Shown one piece after another: positions 36,119 to 57,904 of a stretch of 64,000 nucleotides of DNA. The notes below the pieces were generated by a model. That model had not been told where the DNA came from and ran no database searches. It worked only from the letters and a program-made list of their open reading frames with translations. The translations under genes and the position numbers were made by a program. Position 1 is the first letter of the stretch. The number at the start of each line of letters is the position of its first letter. The DNA is from Calditrichales bacterium (GTDB lineage Bacteria; Calditrichota; Calditrichia; Calditrichales; J004): the NCBI GenBank assembly GCA_965267575.1, contig OZ254086.1, positions 1,664,141 through 1,728,140 on the forward strand, written 5' to 3'.

Positions 36119-37975
36119 TTACTTGATAAGAACCAGCTTCTGGCTTAAAGCCCGGCCGGTCGCTACAAGACGAACGAAATAAATCCCGGATGCAAGCTCT
36201 TCGCCCGAATAGCGCTGAGAATGCAGGCCGGGATTTTTTTTGCCTTCAACCAGGGTCGCCACAACGCGCCCGTTGATGTCATAAATTTTTAGGGCAACTG
36301 TTTCGGTCCTGTCAAGCTTGTAGCGAATGTTTATCTGGCTGTTAAAGGGATTGGGATATGCCGGAAGCAGTTCAAATGTTGTGGGACTGTTTGATTGCAG
36401 CCGCTCATCCTGCAGTGACGTCAGGATCAGGTCTTCAGGGCGGTTGCTGTTAACCAGCATAACCGCGTCGCTGAACAGGATATCACCATCGGGCAAGTTG
36501 TGATTATCCAGGCGCAGGAACGTTTGTTCACCCTCCTGCAAATAAACATCGCCCACCTTATGCCAGCGGCGGTGCCCGGGCTTGCGCTGATTGACATACA
36601 CCGTGTCAGCGGGTCCATTGCTGTGCAGAAGCTGGTAAGGTGCCTGCTGATGTGCCGCAAATTGATATATAATCCAGGCGTATACTTCGTACCAGCCTTC
36701 ACGCGGCACCTGCGCGCTGTAAGTGATGGCGGCGGCGTCATTATCGGTAGCGTAAATACAATCGGTATCTTCAAAACCCGGCAAAGTTGTGTAGGTCGTC
36801 CACGACCCGCTTTGCTGCACGGCGCTGCTGTCTTCGTTAATTATGATGGCCGGCAGGCGCCAGTCAGCCGGACGGTAGGGTACGTTTACTTTTTCGCTGT
36901 AAGGTCCGTTTTTCAACGTTTCATAATAAGCGCCCAGCCGCGCGTGATACCAGATCACGTGACCGGTCAGCCCCTCGTTGCGCGTTGTCTCAATCATTTT
37001 TACCAGCTCGGAAGGCGGCGTCTCATTGCTGTTTGCGATTGTCGAGATGCCGGGATAGACCAATGTGTCGTTGTTTGTTTTTTTCAGTTCTTCGTTGAGA
37101 CGGAAAGAATAGCTGCTGTTGCTGCTGTAGTAGACCTGCGGTGTCACCGTATCCAGCCAGCCATTGTTGATCCATGCCGGCCAGTCCTGGCAGAATTGTT
37201 CATAGCCGTACCACAGAGGCGCGTTGCTCACGTGCATTTCGGGATTAACCGCTTTTATGGAATCATACATTTCAGCCATGAACAGGTTAAGCTTGTCCGC
37301 CCGCCAGCGAATCCAGGCGGAGTTGCCGATGCTTGTGGGCGGCTCCTGCCCGTTGTGTTCGGACTTATATAGTTCCACCGTGGCCGAATCATAACCGCAA
37401 TCCAGATCGGGGTAACGGACGCGGTCGAATTCTACGCCATCCAGATCATAGCGGCGAACGGCATCCAGTACGAATTGTATCAGAAATTCCTGGGCATCGC
37501 GGTTTACGTGGCTTAGCCATTTGTACTGCACGCCGCCGTTCGCTTCGAAGGTGGTATTGCCGTTACGCTTTTCGGCAAACCATTCCGGGTGTTCATTAAA
37601 CAGGGCAAGATTGTTTCCCGCACAGGCCTGGAAGCCGGCCTCGAACCAGGCATCCACATTCAGACCATAGCGGTGGCCTTCGGCGATCATATCGGCCATG
37701 ACATCGCGGCCTTCTTCCAGCAGCGGGTCCGTGTAATGGCCCGTTTCTTCATGAAACACATTGCTGCGGAAGTAGGGCCAGCCAAAGCGCCATACATCCA
37801 CGTATACAGTGTTAAAATTATTTTCTGAAAGCAGGCGCATCGCTTCGCTGATTTCTTCCTTGGACGGTATATCGTTACCGGCCCAGGCCAGCCAGGCTCC
37901 GCGTACTTCTCCTGCGTTAAGACCAAAGGCCATCAACAATGTAATTACGATGGAAATAAACAATCTTTTTATCAC
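36119..37975 (-). CDS. GHL10 (DUF187) glycoside-hydrolase-like enzyme + beta-sandwich domain + T9SS CTD
   Basis: 618 aa. GTG start preceded by an AGGGGA Shine-Dalgarno, then a signal peptide. EVRGAWLAW...NFNTVYVDVW...EAGF resembles DUF187. The CTD is AYPNPFNSQINIRY...SGIYFVRL...QKLVLIK. Confidence 0.7.
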   Translation of the reverse strand: MIKRLFISIVITLLMAFGLNAGEVRGAWLAWAGNDIPSKEEISEAMRLLSENNFNTVYVDVWRFGWPYFRSNVFHEETGHYTDPLLEEGRDVMADMIAEGHRYGLNVDAWFEAGFQACAGNNLALFNEHPEWFAEKRNGNTTFEANGGVQYKWLSHVNRDAQEFLIQFVLDAVRRYDLDGVEFDRVRYPDLDCGYDSATVELYKSEHNGQEPPTSIGNSAWIRWRADKLNLFMAEMYDSIKAVNPEMHVSNAPLWYGYEQFCQDWPAWINNGWLDTVTPQVYYSSNSSYSFRLNEELKKTNNDTLVYPGISTIANSNETPPSELVKMIETTRNEGLTGHVIWYHARLGAYYETLKNGPYSEKVNVPYRPADWRLPAIIINEDSSAVQQSGSWTTYTTLPGFEDTDCIYATDNDAAAITYSAQVPREGWYEVYAWIIYQFAAHQQAPYQLLHSNGPADTVYVNQRKPGHRRWHKVGDVYLQEGEQTFLRLDNHNLPDGDILFSDAVMLVNSNRPEDLILTSLQDERLQSNSPTTFELLPAYPNPFNSQINIRYKLDRTETVALKIYDINGRVVATLVEGKKNPGLHSQRYSGEELASGIYFVRLVATGRALSQKLVLIK

Positions 37976-37990
37976 GGTTTTCCCCTATAC

Positions 37991-56009: not shown

Positions 56010-57904
56010 TGATACGATTTCTGAAAACGGCTTTTGTAATGGTCATTTTTTCGGCAATGACCTTGCCGGCGCAAGTTAAGGAATTCCGCGCCGTAAAGAT
56101 TACCAACGTGGACAGCGAGGTCATGTTTTTCGACGGGGCCATTGCCTCTGCCATGGATTACCTGGCGTCAATCAATATCAACGTGGTGCTGGTGGTGGTC
56201 TGGAATGGCAGTCAAACCGACGGCACGCATACGCTTTATCCCAGCGCGGTGATGGATTCGCTTTTTGGCCGGCCCATTCACCCACACCCCAAAATTGTCG
56301 GCCGTGATCCGCTTAAACGCATCATCATTGAAGCGCATCGCAACGGCATCGAGGTGTTCCCCTGGTTTGAACTGGGCTTTGCCACGGGATACAATCAGAA
56401 CGGCGGCTATATTTTAAAGCAAAAACCGGAGTGGACCCTGCGTGACCGCCAGGGCAACCTGGTAAATGAAAACGGCTTCGACTGGATGAGCGCCATCCAT
56501 CCCGGGCCGCAGCAAATGATCCTGGACCTGGCGCTGGAAGTAGTGGATAAGTACGACGTGGATGGCGTGGAATGGTCGGACCGCATACCTGCACTGCCCG
56601 TGGAAGGCGGCTACGAAGACACCACCGTGGCCATGTACAAAGCGGAGCATAACGGGCAATCGCCGCCGCAGGACTATAACAATAGTGCCTGGAAAGAGTG
56701 GCGCGCAGACAAAATGACCGACTACCTGGGCCGCGTGCGCGATTCCATTAAAGGACGGGGCGAACACCTCATCTTTTCGTCGAGCCCGTCGGTCTATCCC
56801 TGGGGTTATGACAACTACTTGCAGGACTCCGAAGAGTGGGTCGACCGCGGCATCATTGACAACCTGATCCCGCAGCTTTACCGCTATTCGCTGGAGGACT
56901 ACATCGCCGAACTGGATAAATCGCTCAGCTATGTGCCGCTCTCCTGGCATAACCGTTTTTACGCCGGGTTATTGGTTAGATCGGGCAGCTATGTAATCGA
57001 CCCGGAATTCATGCTGGAATCGATTGCTGCCAACCGTGCCCGCAATGTTTACGGCGATGTTTTCTTTTTTTACGAAGGCCTGCGCGCCAACGACGACTTG
57101 CTGGGGGATACGCTGAAAGCGACATACTACGGCGAGAAAGCACTGAATCCGGAAAGGGAGGGTGTGTGGCGTCCGCTGCCGGAAATCGTGAATGAGGATG
57201 ACGACAATGTGGCCGCTGAAGGCGACTGGACAGAGACATCGAGCAATGGCTACGACGATACCATTCTCTACGCCGCCGGCTCTTCGGATGCTTCTATTAC
57301 CTATAGCTTTGATGTGCCCTACGACGGCTGGTTCGATCTATTTGCGTATGTGGTCACCGGCGGGCTGGCCGCGGAAAACGCGCCTTATACCGTGCTGCAT
57401 CCTGACGGCGACAGCACCAGTATCATCATCAACCAGGTGGATGGCCGCAATGGGGGCTGGCAACCGCTGGAAACGCTTTACCTGGAACAAGGCTTACATA
57501 CGCTGCTACGCCTCTCCACGGATGGTGTTGCCGCGGACCGCAAGGTTACCGCCGATGCCGCCATGCTGATGCTGAACCGCAAGCTGTCGCCGGATGTGCT
57601 CGTCACCGGCATCGATAAAGAACCCGTCTTGGCAAGGGTTGAAAACTTTACTCTTTACGAAAACTATCCCAACCCTTTCAACGGGCAGACGACGATTCGC
57701 TTTGAATTACAGCGCGCCGCGCATGTGCGTTTGGAGGTTTTTGATTTACTGGGCAGGAAGGTGCAGACATTGTTAAACGAACAGCGCCCGGCGGGAGCAC
57801 ACACAGCCCGTTTCAACAGCGCCACTCTTTCCAGCGGTTTCTACTTCTACCGCCTTACAGATGGAAAAAATACGCAAGCGCGCAAGATGCTGTTGATTAA
57901 GTAG
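56009..57904 (+). CDS. GHL10 (DUF187) glycoside-hydrolase-like enzyme + beta-sandwich domain + T9SS CTD
   Basis: The track ORF starts at 55901; I prefer ATG 56009, which overlaps the upstream stop (TAATG) and gives a signal peptide (MIRFLKTAFVMVIFSAMTLPAQ). GRDPLKRIIIEAHRNGIEVFPWFELGF. The CTD is NYPNPFNGQTTIRF...SGFYFYRL...RKMLLIK. Confidence 0.75.
   Translation: MIRFLKTAFVMVIFSAMTLPAQVKEFRAVKITNVDSEVMFFDGAIASAMDYLASININVVLVVVWNGSQTDGTHTLYPSAVMDSLFGRPIHPHPKIVGRDPLKRIIIEAHRNGIEVFPWFELGFATGYNQNGGYILKQKPEWTLRDRQGNLVNENGFDWMSAIHPGPQQMILDLALEVVDKYDVDGVEWSDRIPALPVEGGYEDTTVAMYKAEHNGQSPPQDYNNSAWKEWRADKMTDYLGRVRDSIKGRGEHLIFSSSPSVYPWGYDNYLQDSEEWVDRGIIDNLIPQLYRYSLEDYIAELDKSLSYVPLSWHNRFYAGLLVRSGSYVIDPEFMLESIAANRARNVYGDVFFFYEGLRANDDLLGDTLKATYYGEKALNPEREGVWRPLPEIVNEDDDNVAAEGDWTETSSNGYDDTILYAAGSSDASITYSFDVPYDGWFDLFAYVVTGGLAAENAPYTVLHPDGDSTSIIINQVDGRNGGWQPLETLYLEQGLHTLLRLSTDGVAADRKVTADAAMLMLNRKLSPDVLVTGIDKEPVLARVENFTLYENYPNPFNGQTTIRFELQRAAHVRLEVFDLLGRKVQTLLNEQRPAGAHTARFNSATLSSGFYFYRLTDGKNTQARKMLLIK

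Follow-up and report, generated by a model that had tools for sequence, protein, structure and literature searches.

A conserved three-GHL10 locus in a Calditrichales bacterium, probably for harvesting amino-sugar polymers of bacterial cell walls

Only two enzymes of the glycoside-hydrolase-like family GHL10 (DUF187) have been characterised, and both cut the glycan strands of peptidoglycan (PMC6016235, PMC12288456). Cwp19 of Clostridioides difficile, whose TIM-barrel structure has been solved, acts on peptidoglycan as a lytic transglycosylase (PMC6016235, PMC5765458), and DigH (YddW) of Escherichia coli is a hydrolase of denuded peptidoglycan glycans (PMC12288456). Both belong to an autolysin or divisome setting. 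Here we describe a locus with a different setting, in which three GHL10 genes (GHL10_A, GHL10_B and GHL10_C) lie among genes for TonB-dependent uptake and for cargo of the type IX secretion system (T9SS). It is part of a 64,000-nucleotide stretch of a Calditrichales bacterium (GenBank assembly GCA_965267575.1, contig OZ254086.1, positions 1,664,141 to 1,728,140 of the forward strand), which we call the window and whose positions are used throughout. An earlier reading of the letters alone (the sequence-only reading) had located the three genes correctly (Table 1) and had taken GHL10 for a family with little biochemistry, a view made outdated by the work on Cwp19 (PMC6016235, PMC5765458) and DigH (PMC12288456).

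Our data support in outline a conserved, undescribed variant of the TonB-dependent glycan utilisation locus, with three compartment-specific GHL10 members at its centre. The fuller reading, that of a glycan-harvesting system conserved in the Fibrobacteres-Chlorobi-Bacteroidetes (FCB) superphylum with two divergent operons, three non-redundant enzymes and an N-acetylhexosamine (HexNAc) substrate from cell walls, seems to us about evenly poised between right and wrong. Its probable role would be to harvest amino-sugar polymers from the walls of other bacteria. In sediments and soils, bacterial wall polymers such as peptidoglycan are a large store of organic carbon and nitrogen, and little is understood of their consumption by uncultured FCB lineages (KSB1, Calditrichota, Marinimicrobia, Ignavibacteria); the locus offers a defined and widely conserved gene set. 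Full-text literature searches returned no paper on the locus, on its PF12831 partner or on the GHL10 subfamily described below as E-type, and searches on PF12831, Golvesin, DUF4434, and PorV together with a TonB-dependent receptor (TBDR) in these phyla found no functional study. The locus appears to be undescribed so far.

Three old GHL10 paralogues with a distinct active site

A profile search, named by the sequence-only reading as one of its two refuting tests, places all three proteins far above the Pfam gathering score for GHL10 (PF02638; 27.9 bits). GHL10_B is the lipoprotein that had been predicted, with the lipobox LLSSC in its N-terminus (MKTIAILLMLLSLLSSC), and the two others are, again as predicted, T9SS cargo with an extra beta-sandwich. 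GHL10_A comprises a catalytic region (residues 23-298), a Golvesin_C domain (PF25275; residues 377-508) and a T9SS type-A C-terminal domain (CTD; residues 540-615). Golvesin_C scores 74 bits in GHL10_A and 60 bits in GHL10_C, and Por_Secre_tail scores 48 and 45 bits respectively, with TIGR04183 also matching. The true start of GHL10_C is M37 of the listed open reading frame (ORF), which is followed by a signal peptide and coincides with the start chosen from the letters. Used alone as a homologue query, the Golvesin_C domain gave no matches and hence no survey of its other fusion partners.

An AlphaFold2 (AF2) model of GHL10_B (predicted local distance difference test score, pLDDT, 92.8) shows the (beta/alpha)8-barrel of the family. 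Its best Foldseek match is Cwp19 (5oq2/5oq3; E 1e-21, template-modelling (TM) score 0.67-0.74), followed by the C-terminal domain of PgaB/BpsB (GH153; E 5e-15, TM score 0.65-0.72). With PgaB the identity is only 13-16% and no family relationship is detectable at the sequence level. GHL10_B is 30% identical to E. coli DigH over 161 residues (E 4e-14), and a profile of GHL10_B orthologues matches Cwp19 with an E value of 3e-13. Like GHL10_B, DigH is a lipoprotein-type envelope enzyme.

The motifs quoted in the sequence-only reading (RG.W, N.N.V, GRDP, EAH and WFE.GF) proved to be invariant or nearly invariant alignment columns. Furthermore, the window proteins have W-F, Q.Y and D.DG motifs in common with Cwp19 and DigH. 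The aspartate after strand 4, equivalent to Cwp19 D196 and PgaB D466, is present in GHL10_A, GHL10_B and GHL10_C and in 119 of the 120 domains aligned; in Cwp19 it is the proposed stabiliser of an oxazolinium intermediate (PMC5765458). Together with the fold relatives, the retention of this residue fits enzymes acting on 2-acetamido sugars (PMC5765458).

Overall identity to Cwp19 and DigH is about 20-30%, and the proposed active-site residues Arg132, Tyr197 and Asp195 of Cwp19 (cf. PMC5765458) are not retained as a set. The asparagine of the Cwp19/DigH motif WF(N/E) is glutamate (E118) in all 118 of 118 members of the window clade, which have WFE.GF in place of WFNPYR. Arg132, within WFNPYR, is replaced by alanine, and Tyr197, next to the catalytic aspartate, by arginine (R189). 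The position of Asp195 is aspartate in GHL10_B, serine in GHL10_C and missing in GHL10_A. Given this different active site, it is unsafe to transfer the substrate of Cwp19 and DigH to the window proteins.

In a neighbour-joining tree of 120 GHL10 catalytic domains, a long branch separates all three window proteins from DigH and Cwp19. GHL10_A forms a clade of its own with a Calditrichae orthologue (L001:12458-14329; L numbers denote the loci compared below), GHL10_B groups with FCB and cyanobacterial B-types, and GHL10_C with C-types from Marinimicrobia and Ignavibacteria. Since pairwise identity among the three is about 35% and each of the three clades has orthologues in other phyla, the paralogues are old and distinct. 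The question of recent duplication or distinct subfamilies, which the sequence-only reading had left to a phylogeny, is thereby answered: recent duplication is rejected.

Searching 1.84 billion representatives (clusters at 50% identity) with GHL10_B gave 3953 clusters at E<=1e-3 and 306 at E<=1e-30; among the best 150 clusters, WFE..G occurs in 124 and WFN..P in none. The window proteins are thus GHL10 members, but of a large, separate 'E-type' subfamily. With some 300 clusters at E<=1e-30 and a distinct catalytic signature, this subfamily is a candidate for a new CAZy activity.

Two divergent operons and their conservation

The locus consists of two units that diverge from a common intergenic region (Table 1). 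The minus-strand unit runs FAD599, GHL10_B, TBDR, unk668, PorV-like barrel, unk287, unk211, CTD648 and, possibly, GHL10_A; the plus-strand unit runs unk487, Hyd717, DUF5009 and GHL10_C. From FAD599 through CTD648 the intergenic gaps are -4 to 85 nt. FAD599 and GHL10_B overlap as ATGA (48690-48687), which confirms the overlap that the sequence-only reading had taken for translational coupling, and DUF5009 and GHL10_C overlap as TAATG (56007-56011). The tight spacing and these overlaps give both units an operon structure. GHL10_A may be expressed by read-through past the hairpin upstream of it, or separately. Four locus proteins have T9SS-type C-termini, namely GHL10_A, GHL10_C, CTD648 and, weakly, unk668. 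By a Por_Secre_tail/TIGR04183 match plus a signal peptide, the first three and the nearby DUF4185 protein are type-A cargo, with unk668 weak (E 9e-4).

Table 1. Features of the three-GHL10 locus and its surroundings (window positions)
Feature	Position	Strand	Description
GH38	29191..31905	-	MngB-like; no signal peptide; loosely linked accessory
GHL10_A	36119..37975	-	618 aa; PF02638 201 bits; GTG start; signal peptide
Terminator-like hairpin	37997..38012	-	GC hairpin and T-run immediately upstream of GHL10_A start
CTD648	38021..39967	-	T9SS cargo; Por_Secre_tail 44 bits; weak DUF5018-like N-terminal match; syntenic in L005, L010, L014, L023
unk211	40007..40642	-	Small secreted protein, signal peptide; in 20 loci at >=80% coverage
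unk287	40651..41514	-	Small secreted protein; kept in 22 loci
PorV-like	41515..42492	-	PorV/PorQ-family outer-membrane barrel; NF033709 162 bits (cut-off 90)
unk668	42528..44534	-	Secreted; in 'SusD position'; N-domain without family, Fn3-like stretch, CTD-like C-terminus (VVPNPF...KFAIVR)
TBDR	44535..47438	-	TonB-dependent receptor; CarboxypepD_reg N-domain, plug and barrel (Pfam)
GHL10_B	47524..48690	-	388 aa; PF02638 213 bits; lipoprotein, catalytic domain only
FAD599	48687..50486	-	PF12831 FAD_oxidored 334 bits; first gene of operon
SLH-like module of FAD599	48687-49110	-	Residues ~459-599; fused to PF12831 flavoprotein
Divergent intergenic region	50487..50793	.	307 bp; separates both operons
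unk487	50794..52257	+	Polytopic inner-membrane protein, >=9 transmembrane segments; candidate permease
Hyd717	52278..54431	+	Hydantoinase-A/oxoprolinase-type ASKHA ATPase (Pfam, NCBIfam)
DUF5009	54642..56009	+	HGSNAT/NagX-like transmembrane acetyltransferase; 264 bits; NagX match
GHL10_C	56009..57904	+	631 aa; PF02638 171 bits; signal peptide, Golvesin_C, T9SS CTD
DUF4185	61870..63609	-	GH183-like with T9SS CTD; accessory
nanE	63613..64000	-	N-acetylmannosamine-6-phosphate 2-epimerase; PF04131 9.7e-35; cut by window end; accessory

More than 5000 proteins are homologous to GHL10_B at E<1e-10, and orthologues 55-64% identical to it occur in metagenome-assembled genomes of Calditrichota, KSB1, Marinimicrobia, Zhuqueibacterota, Rhodothermia, Bacteroidia, Sumerlaeota and Elusimicrobiota. 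We compared 80 loci around B-type genes (one genome per species) and three from protein look-ups, searched with all window proteins and with their ORFs clustered. Nearly all of the loci come from metagenome-assembled genomes. The window's own genome lies outside the species representatives, where the best GHL10_B match is 61% identical. The whole locus is present, at 91-95% protein identity, in a close relative (L087, JGI 3300023199). We found the full arrangement in L005, L010 (Marinimicrobia), L014 and L023 (distant uncultured or Marinimicrobia loci) and a partial one in L002 (Zhuqueibacterota), L006, L017 and L021. About 20 Ignavibacteria loci have a variant with TBDR, unk668, PorV-like, unk287, unk211, GHL10_B, one or two C-types and DUF5009, while L001 (Calditrichae) and L003 (KSB1) hold the same parts plus a ROK regulator. 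Across the 49 FCB loci, TBDR is found in 26, PorV-like in 25, unk287 in 22, unk668 in 20, FAD599 in 18, unk487 and DUF5009 in 16 each, Hyd717 in nine and GH38 in seven.

The co-localisation on which the sequence-only reading relied is thus not unique to this genome: the order recurs in L087, in the four full loci and in the Ignavibacteria variant. Because it is found again in Marinimicrobia, Ignavibacteria, Calditrichota, KSB1, Zhuqueibacterota and further lineages, we regard the co-localisation as real. That three independent paralogues were brought together fortuitously is hardly credible, even though a terminator-like hairpin parts GHL10_A from the genes upstream of it and GH38, DUF4185 and nanE are variably linked; the one gene order that dozens of loci share, across at least six phylum-level lineages, contradicts it.

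One complete Ignavibacteria-type locus with T9SS cargo (L049) is binned as 'Synechococcus sp. UW140' and is probably a mis-binned contig. A family of about 434 residues without a Pfam match, absent from the window, is found in six loci (including L001:15145-16461 and L002:6648-8201), and in L002 its gene lies between those for unk487 and FAD599.

The likeness to a SusC/SusD polysaccharide utilisation locus (PUL) of Bacteroidota lies in a CarboxypepD_reg-type TBDR co-operonic with secreted and periplasmic glycan enzymes and with inner-membrane and cytoplasmic genes. In contrast to such a PUL, the locus has no SusD, and T9SS cargo and a PorV-family barrel take the place of the surface lipoproteins. 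The receptor scores 95 bits against the SusC/RagA model TIGR04056 (cut-off 368), aligning only over residues 25-242. With neither SusD nor a full SusC signature, the locus is PUL-like rather than a PUL, and the term used in the sequence-only reading was apt. The PorV-like barrel falls below the cut-off of both the PorV and PorQ equivalog models, and PF19572 PorV was found in L001 and L003. unk668 shows weak CTD matches and no Pfam, NCBIfam or PDB match, including in a PDB profile search; unk211 and unk287 match no family. A TonB-dependent uptake architecture that uses T9SS cargo and a PorV-like barrel in place of SusD lipoproteins is of interest in its own right, as are the conserved proteins without a known family (unk487, unk668, unk287 and unk211) and a flavoprotein without a close solved structure.

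On the plus strand, unk487 has orthologues 60-70% identical across phyla and always adjoins the hydantoinase-A-like ATPase. Searches of Pfam, NCBIfam and the PDB, the last also with a profile, gave no match, and a PHROGs scan was empty and uninformative; the protein looks like an undescribed transporter family. Assignment to the GntP/IT-superfamily permeases was rejected (hhalign probability 0.5%). Residues 5-337 of Hyd717 match PDB 7hk5 (8.5e-29), and no HyuB partner is present at the locus. The DUF5009 protein, with at least nine hydrophobic segments, agrees in Pfam family and topology with the HGSNAT-like transmembrane acetyltransferases (TmATs); in a TmAT study DUF5009 clusters with HGSNAT and is its bacterial counterpart (PMC12423673). 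Unlike HGSNAT and NagX, the window protein is translationally coupled to a secreted GHL10.

FAD599 yields an AF2 model (pLDDT 87.6) that matches only generic two-domain FAD folds in the PDB (TM score ~0.3), with no close solved relative; PDB profile matches are limited to the FAD-binding N-terminus. Its C-terminal 140 residues contain FTDLKANDW...CGIMGG...TLEE, then TRVD and then TRAEFA, reminiscent of the F.D...W, GI.GG and TRAE-type motifs of S-layer homology (SLH) domains in B. anthracis BslA/Sap and P. alvei SpaA. The Pfam SLH model (PF00395) gives 21.4 bits (cut-off 20.8), and hhalign of a profile of this region against the SLH region of B. anthracis BslA gives a probability of 81% (E 1e-5, score 37.6), where 60 shuffles reached at best a score of 20.7 and a probability <=3.7%. 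In contrast to S-layer SLH domains, the module is weak and degenerate, sits on a PF12831 flavoprotein and belongs to a protein with no signal peptide. In SLH domains the arginine of the TRAE motif binds the pyruvate ketal of pyruvylated N-acetylmannosamine (ManNAc) in secondary cell-wall polymers (SCWPs; PMC6081394).

FAD599 homologues occur in cultured strains (Chitinophaga spp., Fulvivirga and Calditrichota LG25), which makes parts of the system experimentally accessible. A homologue is followed by a GDSL/SGNH esterase gene in Chitinophaga rhizosphaerae (L085) and in LG25 (L086). The Chitinophaga locus has a ROK regulator ahead of the FAD599 homologue and no GHL10 nearby; in LG25 a 956-residue GHL10 with a CTD lies 4 kb from it.

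Proposed pathway and substrate

The most likely substrate, as we infer it, is an HexNAc glycan of bacterial cell walls, that is peptidoglycan strands, a ManNAc-containing and possibly pyruvylated SCWP, or both. We favour it because of the Cwp19/PgaB fold, DUF5009, the NanE and AGE epimerases described below, the SLH-like tail and a GH183-type neighbour. The amino-sugar polymer suggested by the sequence-only reading is strengthened by the first three of these, and the substrate itself is deduced from the genes.

Lysosomal HGSNAT acetylates a terminal glucosamine and so lets the next hydrolase act. The translational coupling of DUF5009 to GHL10_C suggests a similar logic for a partly de-N-acetylated polymer. 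We infer a PUL-like sequence of steps, with surface cleavage, TonB-dependent import, periplasmic trimming, and inner-membrane and cytoplasmic steps. GHL10_A and GHL10_C, exported by the T9SS, would cut the polymer at the cell surface, their Golvesin_C beta-sandwich probably serving in substrate binding. unk668, CTD648 and the PorV-like barrel beside the receptor would then fill the role of the SusD/E/F lipoproteins of Bacteroidota, and oligosaccharides would enter through the TBDR. Periplasmic trimming would fall to the lipoprotein GHL10_B, and DUF5009 would use cytoplasmic acetyl-CoA to re-acetylate free glucosamine residues, making them cleavable by enzymes that require a 2-acetamido group. 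The product may be imported by unk487 as permease and processed by the ASKHA ATPase Hyd717 and the flavoprotein FAD599, whose SLH-like module would be of the kind that binds carboxylated sugars.

A bolder joint reading, which we consider doubtful as a whole, would see in the locus a kind of uptake system that has so far gone unrecognised, is widespread in FCB phyla other than Bacteroidota and is dedicated to eating the cell walls of other bacteria. In this reading, the T9SS-displayed E-type GHL10s would have a new glycoside-hydrolase activity, directed at peptidoglycan or at pyruvylated ManNAc polymers; the PorV-like barrel would tether T9SS cargo to the TonB receptor as a functional replacement of SusD/E/F; and FAD599 would oxidatively strip an acidic substituent (the lactyl ether of N-acetylmuramic acid or a pyruvate ketal), by a route other than that of the MurQ etherase.

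Another HexNAc or amino-sugar polymer of matrix, fungal or arthropod origin, such as partially deacetylated poly-beta-1,6-N-acetylglucosamine (PNAG), chitin/chitosan or a Pel/GAG-type exopolysaccharide, is a lesser possibility to which we give some weight. The dPNAG hydrolase domain of PgaB is the second-best fold match, and a partly de-N-acetylated HexNAc polymer would suit DUF5009, since re-acetylation is sensible for any such polymer; the departures of the active site from Cwp19 and DigH also leave specificity open. PgaB itself serves in biosynthesis and export and does not belong to a catabolic locus. PNAG and chitin would leave the recurrence of NanE and AGE, the SLH-like module of FAD599 and the GH183 neighbour unexplained, and the locus holds no GH18, GH19, GH20 or GH46-type enzymes.

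It is unlikely that the GHL10s are housekeeping enzymes for the cell's own envelope, remodelling or recycling its peptidoglycan or surface glycans, with the neighbouring genes recycling the fragments. Such a role would agree with the two characterised members, which are autolysins or division enzymes (PMC6016235, PMC12288456), with the very wide spread and good conservation of B-type orthologues, and with the B-type gene kept alone in cyanobacteria. It agrees poorly with T9SS export, which takes two of the three enzymes past the outer membrane, and with an operon that includes a TonB-dependent importer and faces a divergent operon with a permease, the import architecture being what the phyla conserve. 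The cyanobacterial copies, furthermore, cannot reach the sacculus, as they have no signal peptide.

Several observations nevertheless weigh against the cell-wall HexNAc reading. B-type orthologues of Nostocales (L035-L083, e.g. L040:9989-11143), 52-54% identical, have neither a signal peptide nor partner genes; they begin three or four residues ahead of the first conserved motif, which leaves no room for a signal peptide, and a small soluble substrate would suit them better than a polymer of the cell wall. Several positions proposed for the active site differ between the window clade and Cwp19/DigH (cf. PMC5765458). No amidase or peptidase for stripping peptidoglycan peptides was recognised in the locus, nor was MurQ, AnmK or NagZ. 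Only three of 36 FAD599 orthologues reach the Pfam SLH model. The window FAD599 lacks a signal peptide, whereas 12 of the 36 (mostly Bacteroidota) carry Sec or lipoprotein signals, so its compartment is uncertain. Finally, GH38, AGE and DUF4434 could equally mean mannoside metabolism.

Cyanobacterial gene neighbours were considered as a functional clue and set aside, being unrelated. Two related cyanobacterial copies (L047 and L050) are fused to N-terminal WG-type repeats.

Accessory genes and intergenic elements

All the neighbours named in the sequence-only reading are present (TBDR, PF12831, DUF5009, GH38, DUF4185 and nanE), but the last three do not belong to the core: GH38, DUF4185 and nanE are variable accessories outside it. 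GH38, found in seven of the 49 FCB loci, is translationally coupled to GHL10_B in L003. AGE epimerase (PF07221) occurs in six other loci with DUF4434 and a sodium/solute symporter (SSF), a trio seen in 6-9 loci. Two unrelated families of ManNAc/N-acetylglucosamine epimerases therefore stand beside the locus, NanE (the window, L087 and, near GHL10_B, L019 and L021) and AGE (six loci). DUF4185 corresponds to GH183, a family of endo-D-arabinofuranases acting on actinobacterial cell walls, on lipoarabinomannan (LAM) and arabinogalactan (PMC10115798).

These accessories bear on a further alternative, that of a target rich in mannose (N-glycan cores, mannan of fungi or yeasts, or lipomannan/LAM of actinobacteria), in which GHL10 would cut a HexNAc or mannosyl linkage and GH38, an AGE-type (mannobiose-type) epimerase and DUF4434 would complete the degradation. 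The coupling of GH38 to GHL10_B, the AGE trio and the action of the GH183 family on LAM and arabinogalactan (PMC10115798) all speak for it. We consider it quite unlikely, given that the locus in its best-conserved form (L005, L010, L014, L023 and Ignavibacteria) has none of GH38, AGE and DUF4434, that the window GH38 is MngB-like and without a signal peptide, and that DUF5009 and the Cwp19/PgaB-like fold indicate amino sugars.

Only in the close relative L087 does the nanE-DUF4185 pair lie immediately beside GHL10_C; in the window about 4 kb lie between them. The window segment 58230-61812, with two sulphur-transport halves, a tetratricopeptide-repeat protein and a DJ-1/AraC regulator, is absent from L087 and is a probable insertion in the window or deletion in L087. 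Sixteen kb upstream of the locus, window 14713-20501 encodes a secreted 824-residue PIG-L-type de-N-acetylase, an SSF symporter and another secreted protein, which faintly matches M61 peptidases; by its gene content this could be a second amino-sugar cluster.

A scan for sigma-70 promoters gave 20 matches, modestly above the mean of 13.4 (sd 3.3) in shuffles, and these phyla may use other promoter types. The divergent intergenic region contains a run of GATCAT/GATCAA hexamers (window 50530-50562), and an element of about 50 nt (window ~50676-50735) is present once here and three times in the close relative (L087:9606-10000); each is a possible regulatory site. Considered as candidates for a conserved operator between the operons, both were found in no other locus than the 91%-identical relative. 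More distant loci have a different intergenic motif in common, TTGGAA...TTCCAAGTTAAA, which is likewise a possible regulatory site.

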